From the NCBI GenBank assembly GCA_017499595.2, contig CM039003.1, forward strand, positions 3,534,001 through 3,598,000: DNA of 64,000 nt, read 5' to 3'. The notes beneath the pieces were generated by a model. It was not told where the DNA came from. It made no database searches and was given only the letters and a program-made list of their open reading frames with translations. The translations under genes were made by a program, and so were the position numbers. This document shows positions 12,407 to 64,000 of the stretch, one piece after another; within the stretch, counting starts at the first letter, position 1; each line of letters starts with the position of its first letter. This stretch comes from Psilocybe cubensis (Eukaryota).

Positions 12407-12432
12407 GAGTGGCCTTTTTTTTGATATATACA

Positions 12433-17885: not shown

Positions 17886-17924
17886 CCCGTTTCTTAAGAC
17901 GATCCCGTAAGCCGCTGGATACAG

Positions 17925-18410
17925 GTTGTGGTAAGTCGATCACAGTATGCGCATTGTAGCACTGCTTACCTGTAATTGTTAGTTAGTCCGTATTGATTTC
18001 CGGCGGTCTGGCCGTCAGTTATTTCCAAGCACCCTTGTCACATATGCCACCGCTATATATCCCCTTCTGCACGACAACATCTTTGCGGGATCTGTAGTCT
18101 TTTCACAGTCTATGCGTCCTGTGATGGTTCTGCACATACAGGTAGTGGTAAGTTGATTACAGTATGCGCGTTGAAACTCTGTTTACCCCGAATTCTAGTT
18201 ATGCCCCAACGCATCCTGCAGTCTGGCCGTCAGTTATTTGCAAGCACTTTGCAGTTATACTGCCCAGCAGCTGGCCTTGAGGTTTTACAGCACGTCTGCG
18301 GTTTGCACGGTAAGTTGATTAAGTTGATTACAGTATGCGCATTTAAACTGTACTTACTGGAATTGTTAGTTATGTCCCAGTTGGTGGTATCACGTAAGTT
18401 ATTTCCTCTG
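17925..18410 (+). repeat. Degenerate ~200-bp repeat, 2-3 copies
   Basis: ggtaagt(c/t)gat(c/t)acagtatgcgc at about 17930, 18147 and 18320. gtctggccgtcagttattt occurs twice. Confidence 0.65.
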
Positions 18411-42500: not shown

Positions 42501-43989
42501 GTCTGTAAAAACACTGCGAATCACTGAATGCACAAGATCTCACATACCTTTGTTAGTTTATACAACCAATATAACTTGCATGACATAGTCCGCATGCGTA
42601 GACTGTTTGCAAGTAATTGAGTGCATGAGCATGCTCTTTTTAACGACTTTGGAAGGCCAGTTTGCAGCTGGGAGGTATCAGAAGGTGGAGTGTGCGGAGA
42701 CGGGATTGAGCGAGGACTGAAATTGTAAATCAAGGGTAGGTGTTGACTGTAACGAAGAAGGTAGCGATGAACCAAAAAAGAGGTGGGGACGGTGGAGGGG
42801 AGAATAAAACAGAGAAAATTGTGACCTTACGCACCCGCGCATCCATCAGGATATGCCCCTTCAAACCCCTCATCATGACGACTCGCACCCCAACCCATGC
42901 CCTCTCTTCCTCAAACGCACCACTCAATCTTCACCCCACAACCAGTAGAACCCATACGTGTGTACATCGCCACGCATCCAATCTTCGTATAGATAAACAC
43001 GGGTGATAGTCACTTTAATGAGTAAAACGGAATGGGTCGCAAAACTACTATAGACTGAGTGAGGGGTAGTGGGGAGAGGTAATTTACTTACTCACGACCA
43101 CTCTTTGTACTCGTTTGTGCACCACCCGCCACGTATAAATCCGAATTAAATCCAAACATGTACACGTCGGCATCGAGGCCGACACATACGCACATATACA
43201 ACCCGTCGGCGTCGAGTTTACGGTCATCCCTGTCCTCGTGCTCGTGCTCGTATTCTTTCAATATTCTTGCCATTGCTATACGGAGCCGGCGCTGCATGAC
43301 AATACAAATAAAGAACCAAAATCACAACGAAATGAAAGGGGAGATGCAAAGGAAGACGCACTAGCGACAACAATGGAGGGGGAGCGGGAACTTGGCTGGG
43401 GAGGTGGCTGGGGAGGATTATAGATAGGGAGCGCTGGCGGAGGCGGTATAGATAAGGACAAGGAGAGACAATATGTGGAGGCAATGTCAGCAAGAGAGAG
43501 GATGGGTTCTTACGCTCGAACGTACATAGATCGCCTTTCTGAACTGCCTAGCGTTCCGATGCTCATGCGCGTGAGTCCATGAAAAAGATATGAATGACTG
43601 CGTGCTGTGACGTGTAGAGAATTTAAAGGGAGGGGATCACGGTGGTACATGTCAATGGAAGGAATGGCATAGGTTACAAGTGCATGAGGCGGACAGGGTT
43701 GATAAATGGCTTCGGACTCGGATGCTTAATTATCCAGTCCGAGTGTCCAGTAATATCTATTGTCGCGTAGCGCATGAACAATGAAAGCGTGTTCGGCTGT
43801 TAGATGGAAAGGGATTTTGATCGTTTTCTGTTAAAAAGCAGCGCGAGAGTGTGGTTGCCAGTGGAGGTGCTTCAATTACCACCCACAACACGCAACAAAC
43901 TAACGTTTTCACTCTGTGAATCAAAGTACATATAGACCTGATTTAATCTGATTACCCAAGGTATACCCTTTTAGTTCTATGTTCTACGA

Positions 43990-45158
43990 AACAGCGGTGA
44001 AGTGATACCAATGCCCTGCCGAGCGTGTCAGGCAAAGCGGAGTTTGAATGTCCTTGACAACAGCAAGGACAAACAACGCGACTCTTGTCGTCTTCCACCA
44101 CCATCCACGACCGTGACCCGTCTCTTCCCCCAGCCACTCAAACGACAACAGAAACTCCGCAATACGCGACTGGGGGGATGGGTCGTAGGATACCAGGGTC
44201 TAAGCACAGAGGAGGGGGGAGTGGCATCTAGGTGAATGGTAATGTTTGTGTTTTTTTTTTCGCTTTGGCGCCTGGAACCGACACTGCGGGAATACTGCAA
44301 GCCTCCACCTCCATCTCTATCACCCTCGTTTCCCCACTGCACTGGAACACATTTTGCATCGACGCCAGTGCAGCAACACCGTGTCCATATGACAGTTGGT
44401 GTGCTTCCTGCGTCGTGACGGATGATGAAGTTTGTGCTCTCCAGTGCAGTGGAAGGATATTCACGCGTTTTACGCTACCCCGTTTGTACGATGTCGCGTT
44501 CGACATGGACGCCAAGCATCTCTCATCCGGTTTCATCCGTTTGTTGGAATCTGCGGTTATATCAATGCTGGTGAGTCAGGTTACTTCACACTTCACGCTC
44601 GTTCTCTATACCACCATTCCGTTGATATTTTGAGGACATACTACCCTCAACCTCGTGTTTACCCCCAACTCACTCCCCTCCATGTTCTTCGATTTTTGCA
44701 CACATCTATGTCGTGTTATTTGCTAGGCCAAAGGCAGCGCAGCACAGGGTTTCATGAGCTCCATTTGGTTTGATGCACACCACAGCGATCTCGAGAGCCG
44801 AGTTCTAATACACCTTTAAGACTGTTGTTGTCAGGATGGGCGTAGACGCAGGCGCGGGCATGAGCGGGGTGAATATGAACCACGCTGATGCCTTCCCCAT
44901 CTGCACTCCACCTCAACAGGTGCATGTACTCCCTATCCAATTGCCCGCTTGATTATGCACTCCACATTCTCCATCACCTCTACCAGGAACATCTTTCCGT
45001 CTCACCATCCTTGTCTGTGATGGTGTCATCCCCACACCCTCCACAATGATCTCACATGTGTCGCAGGGTGTTACTACGATGACGCTTAGGATGCTCCCCG
45101 TCCCCGCTACGTCGCATATATCCACTTAGACGTCCAAGGGCAGTGTACAGATGCTTAT
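43990..45158 (-). repeat. Dispersed ~1.2-kb repeat, copy B (inverted; carries the empty site for the TIR element)
   Basis: Inverted match to 13903-15120. Its minus strand reads ggtatcaCTTCACcgctgttt with no insertion. Confidence 0.9.
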
Positions 45159-47048
45159 GTGTATGGGTGGACACGCTTACCGTTTAATGCTCAGCGACAA
45201 CGATAGTGTCGTGTACTGTCAGCTCGATACGCTCTTTTCTATGCCCATTGCACTGGTTTTGCAATGTGTGTATATTTGCACCCTCCCCATCTCCATTGTG
45301 CACTAATATCCACATCCCACTTCATATTCCAACCACCCCCGGCCAATAAATCGTTCCCTCCGTACTCCCGACACCTGCACGACCTCGTCGCAGGGCATAG
45401 CGTCTTCGAGCAGGTAGATTCGCACTCAGTTGGAGTGGCCCTCGTTTAGATCTAAGGTCCAAGGTCTAATTAGCTTCATTTCTAGTGTTACTCCACCACC
45501 GCGTCGAGTCGCATCATGGGTGTTCCTTCGCATTGCATCGCATTCGTGCATATCGTATCCCATGGCTTCTCCTTCTTCCCATCCCATGCCTTGAACGACA
45601 TCATAGCAACCTTGGCATTCTGTTGCTTGTCATTCCCTGTCTTTGGCCGACTCGCTCTGCATCTTCAGTTGTCGTTTTTCGAGCTTGTCACCCACATCTC
45701 CATATCCGTGATTTCGAAACCGGATTTCGAATGTCGTGTCACATTACACATCCGACCCTGCTTGTTACGTTTTCCTTGCAAGTCGGAATGTTGATTTGAA
45801 ACTGGATTTTAAGCACTTAGACTGCAAACATTAGAAGCTTGAGTATTGATTTCGAGGTGGGAGCTTCGTACTTTCTTTGAGAGGTGTCAGATATAATTAG
45901 GCTTGTTCTATACACAACGAGACTGAGGAATGCAGAAGACAGACGACATTTGCTGGGCTATTGAGGTTAAAGCTTTTCATTTCCGTTCAATGCTTACCAT
46001 CCACTGTTTTTTGGAATTTCTATTGCTGTTTCTGGTTTTCCATATGCGATTTTCTTGATTTTGTTTCATCAAACTTGTTTCTTTTCTTGATTTTTCCGGT
46101 TTTGCACTTCCTGTACCGTGTACGAAGTTGGAGTGTGCGAGTGAGTCCCCACATTGGGGCAACGTTTCTTATGACACAATTTTCCGTTGAAAATGCGAAG
46201 TGTCTGGCTTGAGATTTCGGTCACTACAAAAATAGCAAGGTTAGAACCTTAGTACGTAAATCGGTGTCAGGTTTCATAATGAACTACTTGGTCGTTAGTG
46301 CATACACCCTGAGTCGAATAACATACTTTGGTGTGGTTGTACTGCGCCCTAGGCATACTTTAGTATCAGATGGTTTTCTTGTAAGTAATGTAGTACTACC
46401 CGGATTACATGAACATATATACCAAGTCTAATTCCCTTTCGCAAAACCGTTGTAATCATTTCTCAAATTTCTTTGTTTCCAACTTATCCCGGCTGCTTCG
46501 GCTTTAAAATAATTCGTATAAATGTACCGGAAACACCCACAGCAAGACATATACTGTGTTGCTATGCTTTGCCATGGATAGGCCAATATAAAATCAGTTT
46601 AATGTTCAATTTTCTGGAATTATTTTGCCCTTAAATATCTGTTGAAATACCTGCTTTAGGTAAGCCATCTTCAGAGAAACCACCCTAAGGCAATACCAAC
46701 ATGTATACTGTTGGTTTTGATAAAACCACGACTTGACCACGGCTTTACCACGACACCAGATTAAATTTACCACAGTCTGTGCTAATTTTATCAGAATCCT
46801 GGGTAATAGGCTGTTCGCACACTCAAAATGTAAGTACTACAATGTAAGAAAAGCTACAATGTAAGAAAAGGTCCGAAACTAGTGAGTACAACTCCATTTC
46901 TGAGTGTTCGCATTTTCAATGGAAAATCGTGTTATAGGTACAACTGCTTTTCTCACGTTTTTATTTATTCTCTCGCAGGACTTCTTCTCTTATTAGAACG
47001 TTGATTTTCTATACGTTAACCACAGGACTGCTTACAAGCATACTGGCT

Positions 47049-47082
47049 GGGGGGTTTAGGGTTTAGGGTTTAGGGTTTAGGG
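47049..47082 (+). repeat. Interstitial telomeric array: G6 followed by (TTTAGGG)4
   Basis: Read directly from the sequence. Confidence 0.95.
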
Positions 47083-47084
47083 TG

Positions 47085-47120
47085 GGAGCAAGCACCGAGC
47101 GAAGCGAGGTGCGAGCGACT
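47085..47120 (+). other. GA-rich DNA hairpin with GCGAAGC mini-hairpin, copy 1
   Basis: GCACC-GA-GCGAAGC-GA-GGTGC, conserved in copy 2 at about 63866-63900. Confidence 0.7.
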
Positions 47121-47148
47121 TGTTTAAACTGTGAGTTAAATGGAAAGA

Positions 47149-47213
47149 AGCCAGAGGGCTGTTGGGGGATCCCAACAACCAGCCCTTTCGTCTTTATAGA
47201 CTCTTCAGTGGCT
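47149..47213 (-). ncRNA. Type I hammerhead ribozyme, copy 1
   Basis: Minus strand: AGCCA CUGAAGA GUCU-auaa-AGAC GAAA GGGCU-gguu-GUUGGG-aucc-CCCAAC-AGCCC UC / UGGCU. All core nucleotides and three stems are present. Predicted cleavage after CUC, between 47154 and 47153. Confidence 0.93.
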
Positions 47214-47907
47214 ATTCTTAGAAGGAATGTTCTAGACATCCGATGACAGCGCGTGAAGTGATGCTGCGCAGCTGTCATGTATCTTACCGACTATCACAAA
47301 TCTGTCAATGTTTATTGTCAAGTTAGACAGGTCTCTGATGAACAGAGTGTCACGGGTCGATGTGGCACATGGTAACCTGTCAAAAGTGGATCCAACACTT
47401 TTGTTCTTTGACATCGTGGGTTATTGACTGTGATGTGAATCACATGGATATAGAGTACTCTGGTTACGTGGCTCCGAGTAACCGCGACATGGGAATATTC
47501 ACATGTCTAGAGTATAAATAGCTTACCTGGGTCCTTACCTAACAATCAAACAATAGACTGATTGATTGTTGTGAATCTTAATTGGACAGTTCATGATCCG
47601 GTCCATCAAAAATGTTTCCACGGTACTAAGGAACTTTTCCCGAAGTACTAAGTAACTTTTCCCATGTACTAAATTAGATCCGGCCCTTCACAATCACATG
47701 CCGTTCGGAAGTTCACACGCCTACCTTACTTCCTAAGCTTATTCCCCCCCAAAGGGGGGGCCTTCGTTGCATTGGGCCTCCTGTTCAGAATTCCTGAAAT
47801 CTGATGCCAGATTCGGATTTCTTGACCCCAAAAACCCCCAAATACACTTTCAAAATATTTTATTTTGTACATATGGAGGTGCTACGTAATTAAATGTGTA
47901 TTTTACC

Positions 47908-48224
47908 GAGGCCGGCCTCCAAATTGATCGAGGCCATTGGAGGCCGGCCTCCAAATTGATGGAGGTCACTGGAGGCCGGCCTCCGTCTAAAAATAACTTT
48001 TGACAGGGACTGGAGGCCGGCCTCCGTCCAAAAATAAACAGAGCGAGGCATCCGAGGCCGGCCTCCATCTAAAAATAAACAGTGACAGGCACTGGAGGCC
48101 GGCCTCCGTCTAACAATAAACACGTCAAGGCCACCTGAGGCCGGCCTCGATTTGTACGCGCGTCGTACGTGCGAGTGGAGGCCGGCCTCCGCTCGTACGC
48201 GCCAGCAACTGGAGGCCAGCCTCC
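47908..48224. repeat. Array of 9 GGAGGCCGGCCTCC-type palindromes, mostly ~41-bp spacing
   Basis: Copies start near 47908, 47939, 47971, 48012, 48054, 48094, 48137, 48177 and 48211 (last is a variant). Confidence 0.9.
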
Positions 48225-49164
48225 AGTGTGGGTCCCAACCAGATAGGTCACGTGAATGTACGCGTGTCGTTGTTGGTTTACTGCTCGTCGCCGCCTGTCG
48301 CTGCCCCCACCACCTTCGCTCGCCGCCCACAATGACACGCACATTGCTGCGTGTTGTTGCACTGCCACCCCCGCGCCTTCGCCGCCGCCGCCGACTCCCC
48401 CACCCCGCCGCCGCCCCGCCTCCACTTGCCGCCCACAACGACTCGCGGCAGAGGAATCGTTTGTGTTTGTTTGTATTTGCTCACACTATCCCTACCCGCT
48501 CTTCCGCTTTCGCTCATTCTCCTCCGCTGCCGCCTCTTCCTCCCGGCACCCGTACTCACAGCAAACAACGGTGGCCCGCCCGCCCCCGGCCCTGACATCT
48601 ACCAACAACTGCAACAACAACAGCAACAGCAGCACATCTCATTGCACGCCACATACGCAAACCGTTCCTCGCTGTACGACCACCTCTCACATCAGACCCT
48701 CAACACCCTCGAGCTGTTACTGCTGTTCTCATTGGCGCACGAGCGTGCAGGGTTTGCGATGCATATGTTTGGAATGTCCTGCCAAGTTGAGTAAGTACAT
48801 GCCTACTTCTCTCGTCACCGCCGCCATCCCATACCATTCCGTCGTCAAGGCCGACATCAACAACCGTGAGGGAGGGCCGCGGGAGAAGTGTCATGATATC
48901 CTTTTTGGGTTATCATGGCGGACAGTTGTAAGTTATCTACGCCGCTGACATTGCGCTTTTACCCTTTAGCACTTCAGCGTGTCTGCGTTTGGATGGGGTG
49001 GTGCGACCCATGTCCACTGCCAGTAAAGAGGTCAGTCATTTCAACAGCCTACATCGACACCCTGTTACCCACTGTTCGTTCTATCCTCCAGTTTCCTTCA
49101 ATGCCGCCATTACGCGTGTCGGGTGCGTTTTATGGGTGAGAGAAAGGCAACCTGGTGAGCGCAG

Positions 49165-49790
49165 GCAGATTGAGGGCGGTCTGGTAGGGACAAATTGCGA
49201 TGGCAAGCAACGACGAGCTGAGGATAGAGGGAGCGTGCTGGCCAGGTGCGTCAGTACTGTAAATACGGGTTGTGGAGATTTGTTTACCCTCGTCTCCTTG
49301 TTGGCAGTCATGCCAGCTTCCTTTCATTGTGTGTCTACACCATGAAAACAAATCCAACGCGGGCCACACAGCAAACGAAGGCGGATTGAGGGCGGTCTGG
49401 GAGGGGTGGGTTGCGATGACGAGCAACGAGTTGACGACAGAGAGGGGACGCTGGCTAGGCGCGTCAGTGCTGTCAATACGGGTGGTGGAGATTTTTACTT
49501 ACCATCGTTGGCAGTCGCGCCAGCGTCCTTTCGTTCTGTGCGTACACCATTAAAACGAATTCAATACATGGCAACACAGCGAGCGGGGGCGGTTTGAGGG
49601 CGGTTTGTGAGGGACAGGTTGAGATGGCAAGCAACGACGAGTTGATGATAGAGGGGAACACTGGCTAGGTGCGTCAGTGCTGTCAATACCGGTTGTGGCG
49701 ATTTTGCTTACCGTCGTTTCCTTGTTGGCAGTCGCATCAGCATCCTTTGATTCTGTGCGTACGCCGTTAAATCAAATCCGACACATGTGA
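49165..49790 (+). repeat. Three degenerate tandem ~210-bp units
   Basis: ttgagggcggt...agcaacga...gcgtcagt(a/g)ctgt(a/c)aatac...gttggcagtc recurs from about 49170, 49385 and 49593. Confidence 0.8.
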
Positions 49791-52751
49791 TGACACTCAC
49801 CGTAGTGTCGCGTTCAGGGGGCACGTTGCCGACGAGAGGCTGCGTCGTCAGCATTGCTCTCACGTTGAGCTGCGCAGCAATGAGCGGGAGGTGAGCACCC
49901 AGCGCGTCGTTCATGGAATGCAACTCACCATGGTGCATCCTTGAAGCTGTTCTGTCAATGTCAAGCATACCGTCAGCGCCGTTGTCAGAAGCAAATACAG
50001 CACGGCTTACCATCTCGAGCAACTTGCTGTACAGAGCCGGAAACAACGAGGGAAGCGTGGGGGAAGAGGTCCTTTGACTGACCTGAAGGCTGAAGAGGCA
50101 GGGAAGAAGAGGGGATGAGGGGATGAAGGATGCCAGCAAGGTGCGTACCCTTTATATACCCTGTCGTGGTTCGACTGTTACTAGTACGCCTGTTACATGT
50201 CGTAAGTAGGCCGAAAATACAGATTTTTTTTTCGTGTCGCTTGTTAGTGTATATTCGGGTTATGCGAGGTGCGATTGGTGTGTTGAGATTCGGAATTGGA
50301 TAGGTTTTCTTGCTTGAATGTTGGATTTGAGGTCAGGGTGGTATGGAATAGTTGAAGAAAATCATCGTACGTCTAATCTATCAAACCGAATACGACGTGA
50401 AATGCTCAACAGCAAGTGCTCGATAATGCATTCATTGAATTTCACTCGAACATCTAATAAAGATTTGAACACGAGAGGACACAAGTACGTTTTTAGTTAT
50501 CTTTAATCCTGAATATCTATACCAGAGTACATTTTTGCCTTGGAATACCCCTGAGCAGAGATAACGAAATAACATGAAATCTCTCAAAACCATCTTGAAA
50601 GTTGCAAAGCCCTCGATGACTCGGGAACAGGTACGTACACCCAGACCTCGAACTATACGCACTCAACACACAACTCGCGTTCTAGCACTCCCGGAATGCG
50701 GACACTTGTTCTGGAGTCAACACACGGAATACTCATCTTCTGCTCTTCTGCACAGCGACAAATTGGACGCCGTTGCTTCTGCTAGTGGATGTGCCGTTAT
50801 TGCTTAGCCGAGGGTGAGCGAGGGTGTTTGGGCTAGTACAGGGCACATGGAGCCGAGTTGTAGGGAAAACAATTGGAATGAGGTGCAATGCCGATTTGGG
50901 AGAGGAGGTGGAGGTGTGGTTGGGTCGGATTTGCTGCGGCAGTTGTAACATTTTGGCCGGGTGGGTGGTTGTGATTGTGCGCGTATTTCTCGTATGCCCT
51001 GTTTCAAGCAGACGCGCAGGGATACAACTGCACTGAGGTCATATTTCCAAGGTCTGTGTACTCTCTCTTCATCACTTGCTAAAGTAATCACCATCTTGTT
51101 AGGATGGTATGCCCCAGGAGATTGAGATTCACTGCAATGATGCGACATTTGGTGAGCATTGTCACCTTCTCATTTAGAGTTTTCTGGCTTGAGATACTTG
51201 CTATATTTTAGTGAGTACATTACATCACAAGATCGACCGTTCAACCGCGTTTATAGGTATTTATTTAGTTGTGGGAACAAGAGCGGGCGATGAGATTGAC
51301 ATGGGGGGGTGAGTATTTGTTCCATTACTTCCGAATCCGATATTGATATCCTTACTACATCTCTTCGTCTATTTAACCGTGTGGGTAAGTCTTCCACTTT
51401 CAAAGTGATGTAATAATATCGAACTGCCGCACCGAAATCTCCAGATCTCTGTGTCAGTGTTTCTACATGCCTTCGTCCCCTCTGCGCCCGTTTTAAATAT
51501 TCTGTATGATCCCAGCAACTCGGTACTGTGGGGATACGTCAAACATAATGTCGTTTAGGTCAGAAATCAAGCTAATATTGATTCAAGGATACAAACTCAC
51601 AATTCAGCATAGAATCCTCGCTCATTCATTTGTCATTCTTGCCTTGATTAAGCGGACTTTGACTGACTCTAAGGAAGCAGCTTCAACACAATCTACGGCC
51701 ATTTGAAGTTGAGTAACATTCATATTACTGCCAATTATTGTATTTTATTCCTCATTATTGTAGTCAAACCTATCGTACATCGATGTATAAACTAGCTACT
51801 AGTATGATAGACACATATATACATATCTATCATCTTGCAGACCTCGATAAAAGTTCAAAAATTCTAAATTTAAACAAGTTCTCCTTGAGTCCCAATGTAT
51901 TCATTCACTAGTGAATTCGCAAGAAGAGCATATTAGATTAGCCATGGAGACCCTGTAACGGAGTTATACCATAGTTTCAAACGCACCTAAACACAATACT
52001 TCGCCGCAATGATGCTGTGAGCCGAAGGAAAATTAGCACCACTCCTCCCCCCAAATCACGAAATTACACAATTTCAAACATTTGCTGCATCTAACTGACA
52101 TTCAAACATTGCATAAAGGAGCCGGGTACCTCCGAAGGCAAGATGTAAAGAAGCTGGATGCAAGTCAATCGAAGTTGAACATGTATAAAAACATTACATT
52201 CCGTTTAGACGCACCTGGGCACAAAACAAGGAAATCCGGGTCTGCCATGAGGATCCTGAATAAAATGAAATTATACATTGGAAGAGATTATGTGAGATAA
52301 AATAAACGAGTCACTCACACGGCATCCAGATGAAAATTGGGACTGGCATTCGTTAAGCGCCCAAAACGTCTCTAAGACGGTACTTTTATATATTTAACAC
52401 ATATCGTCTCTATTTCCCCAAACATCAGTGACAAAGCAGTGCATTAGGAAGGGCAGAGGGATAAATACATGATATACAGAGCTACATGCTATTCCAGCTC
52501 CAATTCCGCGTTTCTAGCGTATGTCCATCAGCAATACCGGGGCCAAGTAGGTAATGATCCGTAGTGATACGTAATTCTGTAGTGCCCATAGTAACGGTCC
52601 CATTTGGGTAACACACACTGATGTACCTGTAGCTTGGTACCAACGTGACATGGTACTCTGTAGTGATCTGTATTGTAACGCGAGTGCTGTGTAGCGGCGT
52701 GTAGCATGCTTACCATGGTCCATACCCCTCTGTATACAACTGACATACAAA

Positions 52752-52843
52752 TTGTAGCATACTACCACAGATTTGTAGCATGCTACCACAGATTTGTAGC
52801 ATGCTACCACAGATTTGTAGCATGCTACCACAGATTTGTAGCA
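52752..52843 (+). repeat. 21-bp minisatellite, about 4.4 copies (TTGTAGCATGCTACCACAGAT)
   Basis: Read directly. The unit contains the palindrome GTAGCATGCTAC. Confidence 0.9.
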
Positions 52844-53111
52844 CATCATAACACACTGCAAATAGGTACAAAGGCATATATAGTATCCACTTTCATTTGT
52901 ATAGTGTTGTGTGGCTATTCCTGCAAGTGCCAATATCACACTGAAAACCGAACCATTTTTGACTAAAATGGGCAATTTTAAAAATAGATAATCTATGTTT
53001 GGATCGGACCAAACATGTTTCTATTAGTAGATGCATAACTATTAATACGTGACGATCTAAATATGGTATCTTCTAATCCACACCCGGCAGCTGCCCCGCT
53101 CATTCACCCAA

Positions 53112-55853
53112 CTACCCTTCTGGACCGTAATCTAGTTCCTCCTGTGGGATAGAATGGAGAGTCATCCTATAAGGGTTGGGGGGGTTCTTCGTAGGCCTCA
53201 TAATAGCACTGATTATGGAGATCTAAATGATGCAAAGAAAGAAATGAATAAAAAAAGATACACACCATCCTTCCTCAGCCACTTCCCTACATAAGCGAGC
53301 CAAGCGAGGACCTTGGTTCAAGGTATCCTTCTCTGCCTCTGCTGCAACCAACATGCAGGCATCATACCTCAGGGAGTACTCCTCTCCCTTGAATTCAATA
53401 CCCGAACACGGACCACCTCTTGCAGGGTCAATCCCATCCCTCCACTCCTCAAGACAGTTGTGGATCTACAGCAAAATGCTTGTTAGCAAGGCAGTGCCAA
53501 TAGCAGGAGAGAAATCAGAACTACACAACTGGCCACAAGCGCAAATGCTTTGTGGGGAAGCGATGTCTTGAAGAAATCCGTCTTTGTCTCCAGACCTTTG
53601 ATGGGGACTGCAACCCCTTTTGTAGGATGGTAGAAGAAGTCCAGACAGATCTTCTTCACAAAAGGATGTCCAAATGGGACATTGTGATACTGGAAACAAA
53701 TCAATGAGTGGTAAGCCAGGTAAAATGGACGGCGAACTCACTCGGGTTTTGGCAACACCCCGGTGGTATTTACCATTGAGTAGCCAATATGCTACCCTGT
53801 CCTTGATGTATTCGATCTCCCCCATCTGATTTTCAAACATATTGGGGTTCGCGGCGATGACCTCCGACGGGACTTCGAGGCCATACGCATTTTTGACCAG
53901 GGGTCTGATCATCGTCTTCAGTCTTCCCCGGAAGGTTGACGCGTAGACAAATGCCTAATGAGAACAGACACGTTAGTACGATATCCTTAAAAGAACACGC
54001 TAAAAATATACCGTTACGGCGGTATTCCTGTCTAGGAGCGTTTTTTTCTCTGCAAAGTTATGTAAACCAATTAACTAAAATCACAGAAGACAGAACTTAC
54101 TATCAGGCAACACTTTATCCGTGTTCATTCTTTCAAACACGGTTACTGCCATCTTCACACATCCATCGGCGACTAATAAGTGATTTTCCCGAGTGGGAAA
54201 GGGGACCTCCTCTACTACATACAGGCACATCAGTTTGCGTGCAATTTTGAGCACATCTTTCCAGTAACCAGTAAAGGATGCAACTGAATGCTTGGATACT
54301 TCCCTAGCAGAAGAAGTACTGGACTTCTTATGAGCGATGTGTGCCTCACCAAGCACCTCATCATCGTCAGATGCTTCGTTGTTCTCCCTTGTCAAACCTT
54401 GGGATACGGCTCCTTGCGAAACAGCCGCCTTGCGCAATGCCTCAGGGCGAGGTGGCTTGTTCGCCCGATTACGACGACGGTGTTCTTGAAGAACATCCTC
54501 TACTTCCACAACCTATATCAATAATACATTAGCTAGACATTAAATACAGCAGAGAAATGATTACATGGGGGGAAGGCTGGCGGAGCAATGCCCTTGCTCT
54601 CCTCTCCTCTTCATCATCGGAAACTTCATCAACCACTGTCAAACATAGGTGGTAAGCAAACACGACATAAAGGTGGAGTTAAACCAACGCTGGGCAGCAG
54701 GCTCTTCATCATCTTGACCCGCGTCGTCGTAACCTTCATCACCGTCGACATATTGGAGAGCTTCTTCATCCCCAATATTCTCTTCATCAATTCCTTGCAT
54801 GCATTCGTCCCCTGATGCTTCCTCAGATCGCCTTTCACCGTCACTATCCCCCTCTTCCTCCTCCTCATCTTCCTCCTGCTCTATGCCTTCGTAATCTTGT
54901 TGCTCCTCCTCGTCTTGATGGCTGATGCTAGCCTCTTGGTGGGCGTTATAGGCTGCTGGATGCACTGGCTGTTGTACGGGGGCATGTTGTGTTACAGGAT
55001 GCACTGGTTGTTGTACGGGGGCATCGTAGTATTGGACAGAATTCTCTGCCGCAGGGGCAGCGTAACGCTGAACAGGATTTGCTGCGTGTTGTACAGGGCG
55101 CGGGACAGGATGTGCTGCATGTTGTACGGGGCGCGGGACAGGATGTGCTGGCTGTTGTACCGGAGCAGCGGGGCGCTGGATGGGGGCAGTGGGTCTTTGG
55201 ACAGCATGATCAAGCTCTGAGTGCTCCTGATTTCTCTGAGCTGCACGTTGGATCTGGACAGGAGGGGGGGCACCCTGAGATTGTCGTGGGCTTGGTTGGA
55301 CTTGTTGGACATCCCAAGGAGCAACTGAAGGCGTTGGCCTTGGTTGCATTTGAATAGGGGGACCTACATGCGACACAACGGTAACCTAGACGTGCTTGGA
55401 AGATAGCAAATTTAAGATTAGAACAGTAGACTCACCCCATTGCGAGGTTTCTTCAAGGGAGGCGCCATCTCATTTTCAGGCATGGCGCTAGTATCCACAT
55501 TGGCGGCCCTTGACTTCCTCTTCCCAGCCTTCTCGAAGTCAATAAAAATGATGTTAGATGTTTTCTCCTGCCGAGCATTTACTCCACCAAGACCACGGGT
55601 GCTTCGGATAGGACGGCCATTGGGGTCTTTTTAATAAGGAGTTCAGTGAATCTCAACAAAGAAAATGCTAGTACAGACCTGCTTCAGGAGCCTGAGGTGG
55701 CTCGTTTTCTGCCACGGAGCTCGGACCCTGTTCAACCTCTTGTCCTAGATGGATAAAACATTAAGTATGCGGATGTAATGAGGATATATAGATGATACCT
55801 TCAACCGTGGCATTGACAACCGCCTTTTTCTTTTTGGATCCTTTAGGTGGCAT
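53112..55853 (-). CDS. Large protein with Q/P-rich and acidic tracts and a C-terminal DUF6532-like domain
   Basis: Start MPPKGSKKKK (NLS-like), PVQ repeats, E/D tract, then WKDVLKIARKLM...VPFP, STFRGRLK, PFGHPFVKKICLDFFY and IHNCLEEWRDG. DUF6532 assignment is from motif recall, not a search. Confidence 0.7.
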
Positions 55854-56647
55854 ATTGGGCTGGTTTGACGGTTGTAATGCAGAAATAGAGACAAGGGGTG
55901 GTGAATTATGTCAAGCTACGATCCGGAGGTATGCGAAATTAGCCTCTTTTCAAAATTTAAGGCGACGGACATCAGTCAAAAATATATCGTGCCATATAGA
56001 AATTACAGGTACTGAAACAGTACCCCTATCTACTACAATATATCACATATACATTATAGTCAGATTCCATGTCCTACTTAGAGTTAAGTAAAGTTACATC
56101 TCAGAGGGGAAAAGACTGCACCTATCATGATCGCGGATTATCCTGAGGGTGCATTAGAATAGGTATTCCCCGACTAATGAGGGATACCCGTAGACGGGCG
56201 ATTTCGAGCTGGGTTTCAAACAGAAGATCTTCATTGGATTTATATGCTCGCATAATGTCGTCCATATAACAACGTAGCTCTGCCTGAACTTCTAGACACC
56301 TCTGTTCAGTGAGTTGAAATTGGTCAAGAGCCTTTTTAACGGCCTCTATGCCTTGATTCTAGAGGAAGGTGGATTAAAACATGAAAATAGACCTAAAACG
56401 AAGAACTCTGCCTCTTCGGGTATGCTAGGGAGGCGGCGACTTTGAGGTTGCGAAGCGTTGTTGCTATTGGAATGGTTCATGATAAAGATAGGCAACAATT
56501 TGGTGTGGTGGTGGTGGCTTAAGTTCAAGACGATCAACACATTACGAACCATTAGCACTGTTGATTGCCGAAATACACTTAAATAGAATGACATAAAACC
56601 CGTATATGTCTACAAGTCCGTGTTCGAGATACAAGTAATGCTGCACC

Positions 56648-59007
56648 CTACATATTTACAACTTTGACACCACGGGACGGGGGGAAGATTTGAATCAAAG
56701 ATGTTGTCGGAAAAGTTGGGAATGTATCACCGCGTTTCATACGAGTAACGGGATATTTATGTACAACGCAAATATCCTTGTCTATTGATCGTATCCTGAA
56801 TATAATCCCCATTGAATCGCCCTCAAGCGGTGTAACGAAGTCGTCCTTTTTTACAGGATGAATTGGAAACAACACTGATTTCGGTAATGTCAGTGTACGT
56901 CCCAGTAATGCTAGGTGGGCAGTATCGTCGGTAAGGCTGAGAAGTTCCATCGCCACTTGATGGTCGCCCTTGGATTTGTCTACGACTTTTAATCGTAATC
57001 CTTTCAGCTTATCGTATTTCGTATCTAGCCAGTGAGCGACGGTTGAGGGTAGTTCTGCGATTTCCACCGCCGAGTGTACAGGTATTGCTGAATACGGATT
57101 CCATGCAGGAGACAGAAAACTTGCTACTGTGGACGGCATTGGAGTTGCTCCACCAGAAGGCCCGGGGTCTTGAGCGGAATTTATATGTTCTCGGTTGCTT
57201 GAAACAATGTCAGTAAGCACCTGACAGTCAACGAATCAAGTGAAACCACATACTGTATAATTAAATGTGATATTTTAATACGTTCCACCCTCTGGTTACG
57301 AGCTTCCAGCTCAACGTCTGCAAAGCCGTCGGGGGTAGTGCTTTTAACGATGCCATAGTACCCCTTGAATGTATTATTCCCGACAACGATGACACTCAAA
57401 CCTATATAGACGTCGTTGTGGTCTCTTTCTCCAAGCTTTGACGAATGACGCTTTCGCGGGCGAAGAGTAGCATGGGCAGGGGGGACGTAGAATATGACTG
57501 TGTGGATGGGCACAATGACCTGAAAAATGTGTTGAACACTACTGAGACAAAGAGAATGACAGTTCACCTACTTCGCGTTCGTGCTCTGGGGCGATAATAC
57601 AAACAGATCTTCCATCAAAGTCTGACACCCATCCATGGAGATCTTTGTGATCCCCTTCAACGACTTCAACACTATCGCCTATCTGGAAAGCTGCACGTAG
57701 ATCGTGTAGTGCAACTGCTTGTGTTATACCTTGGGAGGGGATGTGCACTTCCACCTCAGCGTCAGAAACACTCTTGACCGTTCCAAAAAGACCTAAGTAT
57801 TCTCCACCAATAATTTTGACTCGATCATATCGTTTCAGTCGAGTCATGGAGATGGCTTTCGAGGCTTGCGCTAAGGTCTCCGTCGTTACAAATGGACACT
57901 CGCGAAATTGCTCCAACTCGGACGATGTTGGGAGGACATTGGAAAGATATTTGAGATCGATGGCGTCGAAATCCGTGATAATAAATCCATCCTGGAATAT
58001 CCTGTCGAGGTGCGATTTCTTGATGTTGTCCGGAGGTCTGGGGATAAGAACAACACTTTTCCGACCCTGGAATGTGAACACAAGGCCGGTAGCATTTGCG
58101 TAGGTCGTCCAAGCCTTACGCTTTCCAGCAACCTTGACCCACGATTGGTCTTCAGGGCGTGAGGGTGGGGGATGAGATAGGATCTCCATACATCTCTCCG
58201 AGGATAGCCTAACTAAATGTGTCGGATTAAGCTCTCTAACGAGGCAGGCTAACGTATGCGCATGTTGCATTGATGGCGCCTTGACGTAGATTCTCCCAGG
58301 AATTGAGGATTGAGCGAAGACAGACCGGGCAAGGATGATGGGAAATGTAGGGTTCGTTGACATCTGCATAATTTTGAAAGCGACGGCCTCTTCGCGTCCA
58401 ACCTATCACTCGTAAGGTGATCAATAAATGCTGACTGAAGACTTATATTATTTTTGCGTACCTTGCAACCTATTTCATACATGATATCAGTCGCGGAAGG
58501 CATATAATTATTATCACCAAGTCCTCCTGGTTGGGGATTGCCATATTTCTGTATAAGTTCTCGTGAACTAGATGGCTCTATATCATTGTCAGGACGAATT
58601 TTCATGCGTGAAGGCAGAAGCATGGGCAACAAATCGCTCCATTCATCAGCGTTATCTGTATTTTGCATGGCATGATATAGCCGAGAGTGTGCAACACGTT
58701 CCTCATCCTCAGAGTATTCATCGTTATCATTCACTGTATGTCAGAACCCATTAGCATCAGTACATATTGAGCAGAATATATGTAAATTATTGGAACATAC
58801 GTAGTTGGCCCCCTTCATAATCAAGCTCTTCCGAACTTTCATCATCATCGGAAACCGCTGCTTCAATGTCTATGAAGGGATTAATGTCCTGATTTTTTGA
58901 GATCATAATTAAATTTCCCTGAAGTTAGTGATTAGATGGAGGGTTGGATTAGTACACACTGTGCGGTTGCCTAGGCTGTCAAGTCGTCTGCGTTTATAAC
59001 TAGACAT
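56648..59007 (-). CDS. Divergent Spt5/NusG-family paralog (acidic N-terminus, NGN, several KOW motifs; no C-terminal repeat region)
   Basis: NPFIDIEAAVSDDDE, NGN-like YEIGCK/VGREEAVAFKIM...PGRIYVKA, and KOW motifs YDRVKIIGGEYLGLFGTV, FQIGDSVEVVEGDHKDLHGWV and IGLSVIVVGNNTFKGYYGIV...VELEA. Confidence 0.85.
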
Positions 59008-59432
59008 TGTGGGTCTTAAAGACTGTTAATCGATGTTCATCTCACTTAATTTATCATCTTAACTTGTGATAATTTATTTTTAGATACTACACAACCTATT
59101 ACTATGATAAGACGCTATGATGAACGGAAAGAGAAAACATATGGTGAGAAACACGCTATTTCCGGAGCGATTCTTTAGGGTAGGTTTCCCGTCCTGAAGT
59201 CACGAGTTGGTTAAAAAAACGCCCCCTTACATCAGAACTTGATTGTTTTTCTTTCCGTTCGTCATAGCGTAGTACCCCTCCCCATAGATTTAACATACAT
59301 TCTAATAAAATAGACATAGACAATACTCTAGACACTCTATAATAGTTTTCGTTCAGTTAAAATTCATCTAGTTGAAAATTTGAGACACCAGAAAAAAACA
59401 CACAAAAAAAAGTAAGTACCCAAAGAAATAGA

Positions 59433-62400
59433 ATGCAGGGTGAGACGTTGAAGTTTTGTAGTGCAAGCCCAGAAGATTTCCCCCATTGCCCGACTCCAAG
59501 CTGAAGAAATTCTGGCGTTTCCCTTCGAAACGCAGGTCGTTCGTCAGACTCTGGAAAACATGTTGCCAGAGTCGCACCCACTCCGCGTAGGTCTTAATTG
59601 GATTGCCATTTATGGTACTAATATCAAGTTTCTGTAGAGGATGGTGGATTTCCTCCGACGATATGAGGACTTCACCTTTTTGAATTACGATGTTTCATCA
59701 TCGAGCATGCGAGCGGCCATCAAGTATAGGCAAAGCTTGGCTGCCCTTCAGAACAGCATCGTAGAGACACCCTGCGTAACCTCGGCTACATGGGAGCAGG
59801 CGGGTAGCTTATTTGCAGCATACCGTCTACTCGATCTCGTAGCGTTGTGGCCAGCAGCCTTTGGACCATCGTTGCCGGTGACCGTGCCCCTGAATGAAAT
59901 ACAGGCCAGCACAGGAACTAAGGAAATATTTTCACGGTTCAAGGTATGCGATCATGAAGTCACTCAATGTTAATTCTTAATTTTCAAACAATTATTGTAG
60001 CTTGTAGATGACTTGAAGGACTGGCCGGCAATGCTCTGCTCTGCCAGGAAGCGCATCCTCAGAGCCGACTCTAAGTCGCACAGAAACATCAACACCCCTT
60101 CTATCAGTGACACGCCGTCATCCGCTTTCACCCAGGGCGGGCCCTCGGAATCAACGCTATTACTCTGTCTGGCGCGTAACCACTTCAAGGGTGTTGTGGG
60201 GAAAATAATCGGGAATGTGTACTGCGCCTCGCTACACTACCAAATCTTGTCAGGAATGCGCGGTATGAAGGACGATGAACACGTTCTACCAGACATTCCA
60301 ACGGACACGGCTACTCTTGCAAATCTCTAGTAAGTTTTCTTTCCTCTATTCATTGATACAATCTGCTCAACATACCCTAGTGCAAGCGGCCATCCTGATG
60401 CTGCGTTGTTCCTCTCAGAGGTCACGCCATCTCATTTAAAAATTCCTCTGCATGTCGCCCTTTTCATATCCCCCATCCTTCTTTTTGTGAATAAATCTTG
60501 GTATTCTAAGAAATGTGACCGGGAGCAGCTGCTTAAAGTAGGTGTATCCACATCCTCCCAGTTTAACTTGGATTAACGCACTCCTTTAGGCCTCAAAAGC
60601 GCTCGGTAATTGTCGCCCCCGTGTTCTGCGTGAAGTGGAGATGGAAATTTGGAAAATCATTGCAGCGCAAAATTGCGACATCCAGTCAGCCTTATATAAA
60701 CTTGTTATCTCAGACTACTGGATGGAATGCGAGCGGGTAATTGCACAAGATCCCGCGTTTCACTTTTTCATATGTGTGTTCTACGTACTGTAACAAAATA
60801 ACAATTTAAACTAATAATTGGCCAGCGTCAACAAGCAGCGCCGAGGTTACAGCAAATTCTAACCTAGCAAGGCGCAGCACTGAACCACACGGTAAGTTAT
60901 AAGCAAAGTCTGCGTCAATTACATGATTTAAATCCGTTTAAAACAGCTCAACTTCAGACCGTTTCCCATCATGGTGAAAAAACCACCTGTGAAGGGTCCG
61001 ACGCAGACGCGGAGGGTGACGATGATCACGAAGTGGACACGACGGAAATGGTCAGCATGGGTCAACGGGAGAACGGGGACAATATGGTCCCTACCTCAAA
61101 TATACAGCCTCCGGAAGACACGTCTTCAGTGGCTGGCAAGGATGTCAGCATGGGTCAACAGGAGAACGGGGACAATACGGTCCCTACCTCAGATATACAG
61201 CCTCCGGAAGACACATCTTCGGTGGCTGGCAAGGATGTGCCCACGGACGAGCAACCTGGTTTGCCGCGGAGTGATGATATTGGATCTGGTCTACTTCAGA
61301 CTGAGAATACTGGGCCCTCATCTGCAGGGGATTGTGAGATGAACGTCGATCCGGAGCAAGCTGATGTCGACCATCAAATGGAGGATGGTCCACATACCAA
61401 TGGTCCAGAAAATTTGGGAGATGGCGGGGCTGGACAAGGAGCTGAAGGGTCTTCTGACGAGGCAAATCGTATGTCGGAAGTTCACGAGGGCGAAAAGCAG
61501 GGGCAAGACGGAGAACGACCCGACGAGGAGAACCGAATGTCAGAAGATGGTGAGGAGGAAAGGCCAGACGACAGTTCGTCGGACAATGAGACCGAGAAGC
61601 AGGGGCAAGGGGATGTTCCACCAGTCCAGGAGGACAGAATGTCGGTCGATGGAGAGGGGGTAGGCCCAGAGCAAAACAATGATTCCTCAGACATGGAGAG
61701 GAATACATTGGAAGACAGCCAAGGCGAAAAGGAGGGGGAGAACGCACCTCCTGCTCCTCTTATTTTGAGGATTCCTCCTGTTTCCCAGATAAACAGGAGC
61801 AAAAACACCACGGCTGACTCCTCTCAGAAAGGGAAAGGGAAGGGCCGGCAGGGCCTTTCCAAGCGGCCTCCCAAACGCAAGCCGACGCAGGCTACCGACA
61901 CATTTGATTCGGACGACGACCTGTGTATTGATGTCGATCTGTACGACAGCAACACCACCCTTGATGTCGTCAGCACTCCGGAGAAGGTGTATGGCACCAA
62001 AGTTTGGTCCACCTACAACGGTCGTGGCCAACTTAAAAGTTTCTGCGTTGTTGCCCATGTAAGTCATTCTCGATATTGATTTTTTCGTCATTTATTTATT
62101 CTCCAAACAAGAGTCAAGCCGACGTGGATCGTGTTGAAAGGGTTCTGGAATTGGTCGAGAGTGACTACGTCGATGGAGTTCCATTGCACATAGCACGTCC
62201 CGAAGAATCATGTTTTGCGGTATTCGACCGCAGCACCACGAAATCCATGTATCTGATGGAGTCTTTCTCTGAAAGGAACGTCGTCCTTATGTCTCCTTCT
62301 CAAGAGGAGTCTATTTCAACTTGCTCCGACGAGTTCTACAGCCAGGTACGTCGCCATATGGGTGATATGACGAGCACCAGGTCAATCCAAGGTGTGTTTC

Positions 62401-63789
62401 CTCTTCGATGTTTTGATTTTTCTTTCTGCGTCTCATGCTAATGGCCGTAACAGATATGTCGACCATGTCGTCTAACCCCATCGAGAGGATTAAGTGTGGG
62501 TCCCTCTCTCAGGTCATGGAAGCAGCGAGGATGAAAGGCAAAAGAGGAAAGATCCTCAATGCCCTCAACATCCCTTTACCTCATGCAGGCGCTCACTCTT
62601 TTGACTTGAGTACTGAGGCGGCTGCTCTTCGGGCTACATCTGGTAGCTGGAAGTATAGTACCCCCGTCCCATTTGGTGATATGTCATGGGGACTCGTAGC
62701 TACAGAGGGGGCATTTTCAGATATCCATATCGATGCCAATGGTTTCTGTTCCTTCATCCAACCTCTTCATGGACTGAAGCTGTGGATTATCATGTATCCC
62801 AGACGGTTGGATGTTGACCTTTCTTCTGACCGCCGTGTATTTCTGGGAGACAAGCTGGATTACGGGGAAACGCACCACCAAGACTGGATTTACGAGGCGA
62901 TTGTTCTCGATAACCAGTCAGAACTGTATGTGATTTTTGAATGTCCTACCCATTTGATTATATTGACGCTACTTTGAAAAACAGCTTCATGAGACCGAAT
63001 ACTCTACATATGGCGTATTCTATCTCCTCAGTGGTTTGCCGTGGCGGACATTTTTACTCCTCCACTTCCTTCGAAGAAACCCTGACAGGAATCATTCACT
63101 GTTTTACCGCTGGATACAGGGCAACGAATACGAATCATTCAACGTCCCGATTTTTCCTGCAGCAAACCATACATTGGTTCTACAAGGTTTTGGTTGAAGG
63201 TGACAGCGACCCAGAAGGTATGAGGTTTTTTACCGTTTCCTACAAGATATCTGATTCTTTTCTTCTATTTTCTCTCAGATTTTTATGAAATGTACCATGT
63301 CCCATTCTACAGTACGCAGTCCGGATACTCGAGCTTGATAGCTCTGTGCGTGTGCATGATCTTGGCAAATGCGCTCGACTACGAGACCTATCGAAATCCC
63401 GATCAGATGTTCTCCACCAAGACTTCGGCACAGTTAGACGCATGGATGCGGTGGGATACCAACAGCCTGAGCGACGAAGAGCGCAAGGCGTGCATCTTTG
63501 CCCGTGGCGAAGCCTTGGCTATTCTAGAGTGGCTATGTCATCGCACGAAGTCCATCCACTACATGATTGAGACGGACAAAAACAAGGATGCACAAAATAT
63601 CATGGCGACAGAAAAGTTCCATGAAATGATACTTTGCCGCTATGCCCGTATGATTCTAGCCTACGACGCAGAAGCCAAACATAACAACATTGGTGGTGCC
63701 CCTTGCTGTACCGACACCAGTTTGCTTTTTGTCCAGCTTCAGGGCGTCTGCAGCGGAGAATTGAACAAGGTTATATGTCGCAGTATCGA
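59433..63789 (+). CDS. Large JmjC-domain 2OG/Fe(II) dioxygenase-like protein, 3'-truncated by telomeric repeats; start uncertain
   Basis: Multi-exon, with an acidic region at 61033-62079. JmjC core WGLVATEGAFSDIHIDANGF...GLKLWII (HxD) and FMRPNTLHMAYS...GGHFY (distal His). The last exon reads ...KVICRSIE straight into GGG TTTTAGGG. Confidence 0.8.
61051..61238 (+). repeat. 93-bp (31-aa) coding tandem duplication
   Basis: VSMGQ(R/Q)ENGDN(M/T)VPTS(N/D)IQPPEDTSSVAGKD occurs twice. Confidence 0.9.
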
Positions 63790-63866
63790 GGGTTTTAGGG
63801 TTTAGGGTTTAGGGTTTAGGGTTTAGGGTTTAGGGTTTAGGGTTAGGGTTTAGGGTTTAGGGGGGG
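63790..63866 (+). repeat. Interstitial telomeric array, 10 units (TTTAGGG, with one TTAGGG and one TTTTAGGG)
   Basis: Read directly from the sequence. Confidence 0.95.
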
Positions 63867-63932
63867 AGCGAGCACCGAGCGAAGCGAGGTGCGAGCGACT
63901 AGTTTAAACTGTGAGTTTGAAATAGAAAGAAG

Positions 63933-63996
63933 GCCAGAGGGCTGTTGATTGTTATCAGCAGCCAGCCCTTTCGTCTTTATAGACTCTTCAGTGGCT
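63933..63996 (-). ncRNA. Type I hammerhead ribozyme, copy 2
   Basis: Minus strand: GCCA CUGAAGA GUCU-auaa-AGAC GAAA GGGCU-ggcu-GCUGAU-aaca-AUCAAC-AGCCC UC / UGGC. Core is identical to copy 1. Confidence 0.93.
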
Positions 63997-64000
63997 ATTC

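Follow-up and report, generated by a model that had tools for sequence, protein, structure and literature searches.

A compact Spt5 paralogue of Psilocybe cubensis in putative subtelomeric DNA between two Penelope-like retroelement ends

A stretch of 64,000 nucleotides of Psilocybe cubensis DNA (NCBI GenBank assembly GCA_017499595.2, contig CM039003.1, positions 3,534,001 to 3,598,000 of the forward strand), referred to here as the window and numbered from its first letter, carries a minus-strand gene at 56648-59007 for a homologue of the transcription elongation factor Spt5. The gene encodes a collinear Spt5 homologue with an acidic N-terminal motif, an NGN domain, KOW1-3, a KOW5-like domain, one nonamer that resembles a unit of the C-terminal repeats (CTR) and a KOW6-KOW7-like domain. 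Comparison with its relatives supports the view that this is a genuine and intact gene, which belongs to a large family of compact Spt5 paralogues found mostly in the Basidiomycota. The gene lies in a block bounded on both sides by a hammerhead ribozyme motif and telomere-type repeats, as at the ends of certain Penelope-like elements (PLEs). Our preferred reading, to which we give a probability of about 0.45, is that the gene specifies a compact, polymerase-binding Basidiomycota Spt5 paralogue and sits in subtelomeric DNA trapped between PLE ends.

Gene model and domain architecture

The gene model was built by reading the minus strand of 56400-59400 in three frames and joining these at canonical GT..AG introns. 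This gave six exons (59007-58960, 58888-58801, 58733-58462, 58402-57572, 57519-57254 and 57197-56648) separated by introns of 71, 67, 59, 52 and 56 nt, all five of them GT..AG, and a frame of 684 codons that is open throughout. Its start and stop are exactly the limits that a preliminary description of this DNA had given (56648, 59007). The closest named protein is the NCBI entry 'hypothetical protein JR316_0004106 [Psilocybe cubensis]' (P0001), which has 5 differences from the window protein in 329 positions and begins with MSSYKRRRLDSLGNHT followed by DINPF.., that is, with the same first splice. This P. cubensis model ends at 329 aa, against 684 aa for the window product, and its cluster is recorded on one contig. 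No second Spt5-like sequence was found in the 64-kb window, as all 182 tblastn pieces obtained with 150 relatives fell inside the gene. Twelve sequencing runs with part of 52000-61999 were listed, nine of which contain at least half of its words; no RNA run is among the 12. The gene and its annotated exons are as follows.

56648-59007, minus strand: Spt5-like paralogue gene, six exons, stop included, 684 aa (reading frames, GT..AG introns, the splice of P0001, and Pfam, PDB-profile and fold matches)
58801-58888, minus strand: exon with the acidic N-terminal motif DINPFIDIEAAVSDDDESSEE (Spt5_N below cut-off; family profile aligned to yeast Spt5 residues 171-200)
57572-58402, minus strand: exon with most of NGN, a shortened KOW1 region, KOW2 and KOW3 (Pfam; structural model; Foldseek)
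57254-57519, minus strand: exon with a KOW5-like domain (KOW5_SPT5, E 9.3e-7, 28.7 bits against a cut-off of 27)
56648-57197, minus strand: last exon, in which one CTR-like nonamer (SPAWNPYSA) precedes a KOW6-KOW7-like tandem (regular expression; structural model; Foldseek match to 5ohq)

The window gene was scanned with Pfam exon by exon. On the N-terminal exon Spt5_N stayed below its cut-off (E 0.0094, 17.3 bits against 24.2). The NGN domain scored 17.3 bits on the piece 58402-57572, below the cut-off of 22.4; an intron cuts the domain and leaves its first strand in the previous exon. On P0001, which spans the intron and is 98% identical, it reached 31.5 bits (E 1.7e-7). The piece 58402-57572 further matched KOW2_Spt5 (E 3.2e-13, 49.7 bits), KOW (E 8.6e-8, 32.2 bits) and KOW5_SPT5 (E 1.6e-7). 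The first two of these scores are above their Pfam cut-offs, so that a KOW domain follows NGN. KOW4_SPT5 gave 20.8 bits, below its cut-off of 27, in an overlap with the KOW3 stretch. There was no Pfam match to KOWx in the window protein and none of any kind on the pieces 58731-58462 and 57196-56651.

A profile built from 28 family sequences matched yeast Spt5 with an E value of 2.5e-71. Profile positions 5-431 are collinear with yeast residues 171-630, a stretch that takes in the NRFLDIEAEV acidic motif, NGN, KOW1, KOW2 and KOW3; the acidic motif of the profile, ..NPFLDlEAeVdd.., aligned with NRFLDIEAEVSDDED of the yeast protein. The evidence for KOW1 is this alignment, and the KOW1 insert of the window protein is about 35 residues shorter than in the relatives. 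The same profile matched plant SPT5L/RDM3 (8hyj_W) with an E value of 5e-35.

The predicted folds agree with this assignment. The AlphaFold model of the 277-aa exon 58402-57572 had a predicted local distance difference test score (pLDDT) of 86.6, and its first 24 Foldseek matches were Spt5 chains of RNA polymerase II (Pol II) elongation complexes (E 2.6e-14 to 1.8e-7), aligned at about 20% identity. The last exon, though without a Pfam match, was modelled with a pLDDT >90 over about residues 60-175, and its best Foldseek match was KOW6-KOW7 of human DSIF (5ohq, E 9.4e-6, TMt 0.74). Just before this domain, at residue 531, the regular expression found SPAWNPYSA as a single occurrence; it resembles the CTR nonamer of Spt5, which is TPAWNSGSK in fission yeast. 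The CTD repeat family PF12815 had no Pfam match in the window protein, which thus lacks the CTR array of canonical SPT5. The architecture is that of a near-complete Spt5 core with the CTR down to one unit and without detectable KOWx-KOW4.

A family of Spt5 paralogues and the state of this copy

Homologues were searched with the 277-aa exon as query against 1.84 billion cluster representatives. At E<=1e-3 the family counts 341 representatives, of which 88 remain at <=1e-10 and 9 at <=1e-30. Among the best 150 of the 341, 112 are shorter than 450 aa, 2 measure 450-559 aa, 28 measure 560-850 aa and 8 are longer. When 35 long representatives were scanned with Pfam, most proved to be NGN-plus-KOW proteins of about 680-730 aa like that of the window; PF12815 was present in one (P0123 only) and KOWx in two (P0123 and P0132). 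The CTR regular expression matched once in the window protein and five times in the canonical-like P0123. In a maximum-likelihood tree of 27 rows, from which eight fused or odd rows had been removed beforehand (P0035, P0095, P0119, P0125, P0130, P0115, P0075 and P0103), four canonical-like proteins stood apart from 23 family rows including the window protein, with a Shimodaira-Hasegawa-like approximate likelihood ratio test (SH-aLRT) support of 98. Within the family the branches are long (median end branch 0.83 changes per column).

Look-alike clusters in the Atlas carry the remark 'commonest Basidiomycota', and hundreds of 50%-identity clusters of the family belong to the Basidiomycota. In UniRef such a protein is named either 'NGN domain-containing protein' or 'Chromatin elongation factor SPT5'. 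A word-index protein search for near matches returned P0001 alone, and the one for longer proteins scored 0 of 1482 candidates. The word-index profile search gave 13 matches, namely 12 canonical-type Spt5 proteins and P0007 itself, and a scan of metagenome contigs with a single protein yielded 70 pattern matches and no relatives. Some gene models are fused: P0006 joins the family part to Tet_JBP, and P0021 and P0035 join it to an RTC4-like domain. Either the family repeatedly lies next to such genes in other mushrooms, as these fusions suggest, or the models are annotation run-ons. Full-text literature searches (subscription journals and supplements lying outside their scope) found no description of a fungal Spt5 paralogue family, which apparently is undescribed so far.

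The gene was also considered as the organism's canonical SPT5. This was rejected, since it falls in a separate clade and has no CTR array. The preliminary description had called it a diverged, non-canonical Spt5 paralogue with an acidic N-terminal motif, NGN and at least three KOW motifs, and it was right on both counts: the first is carried by the tree, the Pfam KOW matches, the match of the profile to yeast Spt5 and the Spt5 folds, the second by the profile alignment, the NGN score of P0001, the KOW scores and the models. Its statement that the C-terminal repeats are lacking holds for PF12815 and for an array, and does not hold for the one CTR-like nonamer at residue 531. The premise that Spt5 is essentially single-copy is misleading here, as the family counts hundreds of 50%-identity clusters in the Basidiomycota.

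To judge the state of this copy, it was compared with 22 other full-length members at the 52 columns where these show a conservation of at least 80%. The window protein agrees with the family at 44 columns, and its 8 departures are mid-range among the 1-17 of the other members. The observed/expected CpG ratio of the gene is 0.98, which is not depleted. One of its departures from the family, in the NGN domain, is the following.

58280-58282, minus strand: codon AAG for Lys177, at the family-conserved Glu position of the NGN motif IY(V/I)EA, equivalent to yeast Spt5 E338

The equivalence to E338 was counted along the alignment of the family profile with yeast Spt5. Lys177 (motif RIYV-K-APS) is private to the window copy; the residue is Glu in P0001, in the aligned relatives (among them P0002-P0005, P0007, P0012, P0020, P0024, P0029 and P0035) and in human and yeast Spt5. 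E338 reportedly contacts Spt4, and E338K is said to weaken Spt4 binding. Lys177 may likewise impair the binding of Spt4, or it may be a neutral polymorphism. The yeast allele spt5-194 is E338K, according to an excerpt of PMC4978902. Other losses in conserved NGN and KOW motifs are W131Y and D240A, both also in P0001, and G390D.

The Glu-to-Lys change at a position where P0001 and the relatives keep Glu, the shortened KOW1 insert, the end of the P. cubensis model at 329 aa and the place of the gene among telomere-type repeats would all be expected of a decaying or non-functional duplicate at a fast-changing chromosome end, without a present role. We nevertheless consider such decay very unlikely, in view of the intact 684-codon frame with five canonical introns, the mid-range conservation and a CpG ratio that bears no mutational decay signature.

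Termini and origin of the block

The block, its two ends and its other genes are described by the following features.

47149-47233, minus strand: hammerhead ribozyme motif of type I, with the core CUGAAGAG, GAAA after a 4-bp helix II, a long helix III and CUC as its cleavage triplet
47052-47083, plus strand: (GGGTTTA)4.6 telomere-type repeat, which on the minus strand is (CCCTAAA)n, 66 nt downstream of the hammerhead
63789-63862, plus strand: telomere-type repeat, (AGGGTTT)10.6, on the distal border of the block (repeat search)
63926-64000, minus strand: second hammerhead terminus, which ends with the window (direct repeats D12, 92%, and D13, 88%; alignment)
47084-63788, minus strand: block between the termini, 16.7 kb, with the Spt5-like and DUF6532 genes, an antisense JmjC-like gene and about 6 kb of repeat-rich DNA
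53226-56358, minus strand: DUF6532 gene, approximate extent, with coiled-coil, Pro-rich and acidic regions and then DUF6532 (translations of open reading frames, ORFs)
60868-63802, plus strand: JmjC-like gene, approximate extent, a run of ORFs for an acidic repeat region and an HxD..H domain of JmjC-like type

The hammerhead of each terminus is composed of helix I (AGCCA/UGGCU), the CUGAAGAG core, the 4-bp helix II with GAAA, a 12-bp bulged helix III and the triplet CUC, after which cleavage would fall at about 47154 in the proximal copy. At both termini the order on the minus strand is hammerhead, then (CCCTAAA)n, so that the two are co-oriented. They share the direct repeats 47053-47137/63833-63917 (D12) and 47150-47217/63933-64000 (D13), with spacings of 16,780 and 16,783 bp. 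The pattern of the hammerhead core occurs in the window at these two termini only, apart from a helix-less match at 24340, and the telomere-type repeat pattern gave 11 matches where 0.02 were expected by chance. Rfam returned no matches at the gathering threshold; RF03152 reached 29.1 bits (E 0.92), below its gathering score of 56.3. With the hammerhead fold imposed on both copies, 40 of 42 cells were paired, including two compensatory pairs in the distal helix III. The shuffle control (129 of 500) is uninformative with two sequences. The RNAalifold consensus of the two copies was a non-hammerhead fold, after which the hammerhead structure was named explicitly. The exact 38-nt terminus pattern had no match in metagenome contigs.

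Passages of PMC8557442 and PMC6431247 give hammerheads with reverse-complement telomere repeats as marks of the endonuclease-less Penelope-like clades Athena and Coprina and of the Terminons of rotifers, and fungal PLE hammerheads are, in an excerpt of PMC4209133, of type I with a large helix III. Judged by motif and order, the two termini are thus supported as real 3' hammerhead/telomere ends of the endonuclease-less Penelope-like (Coprina/Athena) type. The repeat unit is the seven-base TTTAGGG, with one TTAGGG variant in the distal array. The usual telomere unit of mushrooms is the six-base TTAGGG. The source of the TTTAGGG unit may be a template of the element itself or the telomerase of the host.

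Within the block the DUF6532 gene lies directly downstream of the Spt5-like gene and on the same strand, whereas the JmjC-like gene of about 3 kb diverges from the Spt5-like gene on the other strand. DUF6532 was matched with E 7.2e-5 (53469-53954) and with 0.0045 and 0.031 on adjoining ORF pieces; in the literature searched this domain has one mention, in one paper. The JmjC-like gene is multi-exon, with the domain ..HIDANGF..GLKLW.. and an acidic 93-nt tandem repeat at 61051-61238. It had no Pfam match and only matches at E>0.3 in a PDB sequence search; in the Atlas it scored 0.92 to a JmjC/Cupin_8 cluster, its first matches (0.97) being unnamed Basidiomycota clusters. Its last ORF runs into the distal telomere repeat, from which it takes its stop codon (frame end 63794). 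The gene therefore looks truncated by that repeat, as if broken and then healed. Both neighbours occur in several clusters of Basidiomycota. The stretch that leads from the DUF6532 gene to the hammerhead, about 6 kb of GC-rich DNA (47.3-53.2 kb), has no recognisable ORF and contains three tandem arrays: 47908-48148 with 32/41-nt units that contain the palindrome GGCCGGCC, 49146-49782 with three units of about 210 nt, and 52752-52843 with 4.4 units of 21 nt.

No reverse transcriptase, endonuclease or transposase was found among the 123 ORFs of at least 95 aa in the window (E<=1e-3) or among the 144 ORF pieces of at least 45 aa in 47-64 kb (E<=0.05). The Pfam matches of the 123 ORFs are GH18, LysM and DUF6532 only. 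Terminal inverted repeats were absent from 46-64 kb. The observed/expected CpG ratio is 0.85 in both the block and its flank, and CpG depletion as a mark of a silenced element is absent from the block.

The preliminary description had placed the gene on the strand of a hammerhead terminus and regarded it as cargo of the element. The terminus is real and occurs twice, 16,780 bp apart, and the gene shares the minus strand with both hammerheads. The cargo claim was not upheld, given a block without reverse transcriptase or transposase, an antisense gene cut by the distal repeat and termini that are 88-92% alike; cargo status is unproven and the evidence leans against it.

The most likely origin of the block is subtelomeric DNA trapped between two events of end healing and retroelement addition; a cargo module needed by the retroelement is less likely. 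As the plus strand is the G-rich strand, a former chromosome end would have lain at 47083 and a later one at 63862, each of which would have been given a PLE 3' end. A PLE 3' end would first have been copied onto the end at 47083. Subtelomeric DNA, then lying distal to this fragment, would have been broken inside the JmjC-like gene, and the break would have been healed by telomerase and capped by a second PLE, with its end at 63862. The trapped DNA would carry three lineage-expanded genes of chromatin or transcription type, namely the JmjC-like, Spt5-like and DUF6532 genes. We lean to capture because there is no reverse transcriptase in 16.7 kb, one gene is antisense, the five sense-strand introns of the Spt5-like gene are all retained and the termini have diverged (88-92% alike, against an identity of 98.5% between the gene and its P. 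cubensis counterpart). Of the four reasons none is decisive. In excerpts of PMC6431247, host genes are often captured between neighbouring telomeric PLEs, and Terminon copies, which carry accessory ORFs, are mostly 5'-truncated by telomere repeats. As that review states both truncation and capture of host genes, the literature allows for capture as well as for a long element.

Several points weigh against the preferred reading. A single long retroelement would also agree with the shared orientation of the gene and both termini and with the gene-poor repeats that extend over 6 kb up to the 3' terminus. Introns are known to persist in PLEs (excerpt of PMC4209133), which makes intron retention weak evidence, and truncated PLE copies can lack a reverse transcriptase. 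The Tet_JBP and RTC4-like fusions hint that the family may travel with transposon-type genes. Of the second terminus 168 nt are visible before the window ends at 64000. Finally, with Lys177, W131Y, D240A and G390D the copy could be impaired.

Some of these points would be explained if the block were one Terminon-like giant endonuclease-less PLE, 5'-truncated and devoid of reverse transcriptase, with the Spt5 paralogue as a cargo processivity or antitermination factor for the full-length Pol II RNA. The spacing of the co-oriented termini, the shared strand of the Spt5-like and DUF6532 genes and the 5'-truncated Terminon copies with accessory ORFs agree with this, and the JmjC-like neighbour together with the Tet_JBP fusion of a relative would fit an anti-silencing toolkit. 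We regard it as rather unlikely, in view of the missing reverse transcriptase, the antisense JmjC-like gene, the five kept introns, the likeness of the termini of only 88-92%, the single contig of the P0001 cluster and the window's lack of another Spt5-like copy (all 182 tblastn pieces lie within the gene). A bolder version is distinctly unlikely: a mushroom would have a Terminon-like giant telomeric retroelement whose units bring their own tools for transcription and chromatin, namely an Spt5 paralogue without CTR, an oxygenase of JmjC-like type and a DUF6532 protein, and the Basidiomycota-wide Spt5-like family would be a transposon-borne polymerase hijacker, the first case in eukaryotes of what RfaH and other NusG paralogues of mobile elements are in bacteria. 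To our knowledge, elements of the Terminon type have so far been described in bdelloid rotifers only, and a true cargo would extend Terminon-like giant retroelements to the fungi.

Alternatively, the Spt5-like family may be cargo of large mushroom DNA transposons, together with TET/JBP, JmjC-like, RTC4-like or DUF6532 genes, and the block a transposase-less fragment of one in the subtelomere. The fusions to Tet_JBP (P0006) and to RTC4-like domains (P0021, P0035), the fragment size (<450 aa) of 112 of the best 150 representatives and the likewise multi-cluster Basidiomycota families of the JmjC-like and DUF6532 neighbours point that way. This is also unlikely, as the window has no transposase Pfam family and 46-64 kb no terminal inverted repeats; moreover KOW, NusG and elongation are absent from the paper on fungal TET/JBP transposons (PMC12730594), and the fused models may be annotation errors. 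Taken together, the fusions and the JmjC-like and DUF6532 neighbours support some form of mobile or conflict-driven lifestyle of the family, and do not point specifically to the Penelope-like terminus.

Elsewhere in the window, a GH18 chitinase-like gene (5001-6414, minus strand) and LysM-domain ORFs (9609-12435, plus strand) form an ordinary fungal pair about 35 kb proximal to the first telomere repeat. An inverted repeat of about 2.2 kb (13002-15247 and 43104-45168), in pieces that are 72-98% complementary and about 29-31 kb apart, contains ORFs without Pfam matches and may be another repeated element. A cluster of direct repeats spaced 142-330 nt (D1, D2, D7, D8) lies at 17159-18379.

Proposed function and comparison with known systems

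Among transcription factors, Spt5 alone is conserved throughout all domains of life. Its NGN-KOW1 module attaches to the polymerase clamp, where it closes the cleft; the additional KOW domains lie along the exits of DNA and RNA, and the phosphorylated CTR array recruits downstream factors. The paralogue would bind the Pol II clamp via NGN-KOW1, in competition with canonical Spt5. Binding at the Spt5 site is the best-supported mechanism because the NGN and KOW domains are kept with confident folds. Without a CTR array it would offer no phospho-CTR platform, and the polymerase would be decoupled from CTR-dependent steps. For want of this array the paralogue would alter the outcome of transcription at the sites where it is found, instead of serving elongation in general. 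The outcome could be RfaH-like read-through, silencing-linked transcription as with SPT5L or Spt5m, or dominant-negative interference, between which sequence cannot tell; the RfaH-like antitermination of a >16-kb RNA is speculation.

Specialised eukaryotic Spt5 paralogues are described in excerpts of the literature for plants (SPT5L, silencing by RNA polymerase V, Pol V) and ciliates (Spt5m). A mushroom family with hundreds of diverged Spt5 paralogues that lack the CTR would add a third eukaryotic case, whose members adjoin oxygenase-type and other lineage-expanded genes and which is found here inside a telomeric retroelement array. The family would provide a natural experiment on the Spt5 core without its CTR and a handle on the conflict between transposon and host over transcription in fungi.

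With canonical SPT5/DSIF the window protein shares the collinear acidic N-terminal motif, NGN, KOW1, KOW2-3, KOW5 and KOW6-7. Canonical SPT5, however, has about 1000-1100 aa instead of 684 and a CTR array instead of one nonamer; the window protein further differs in the undetected KOWx-KOW4, the shorter KOW1 insert, the separate clade and the many-cluster family. Plant SPT5L (KTF1, RDM3), which acts with Pol V in RNA-directed DNA methylation, is in excerpts on it likewise a lineage-specific and transposon-linked paralogue with NGN and KOW. It has a long GW/WG Argonaute-hook tail, whereas such repeats are absent from the window protein, with one GW/WG dipeptide and 6 Trp in its 684 aa. We know of no Pol V in fungi. 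Paramecium Spt5m is also a second Spt5, serving a special transcription programme linked to transposon elimination (excerpts of PMC5416832 and PMC8934623). In contrast to the window protein it is, in these descriptions, a single developmental paralogue of a ciliate with its own Spt4 and no link to a telomeric retroelement.

The bacterial RfaH is a NusG paralogue that vies with the housekeeping factor for the polymerase clamp and is dedicated to certain long operons or to mobile DNA; it has two domains, is recruited by the ops DNA signal and has a fold-switching KOW. No such feature was noticed in the window protein, though no search was directed at one. The likeness of the window protein to RfaH-type NusG paralogues is in idea only, NusG structures being weak Foldseek matches (E 1e-4). 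As for the termini, the block differs from PLEs and Terminons in having no reverse transcriptase, one antisense gene and none of the listed Terminon accessory ORF types, and an Spt5-like ORF is not among the accessory functions named in excerpts of PMC6431247. The termini share with fungal PLEs, as described in part of that literature, the type-I hammerhead with its long helix III, and with Coprina/Athena PLEs and Terminons the 3' hammerhead followed by reverse-complement telomere repeats and the head-to-tail arrangement of units with telomere repeats between them.

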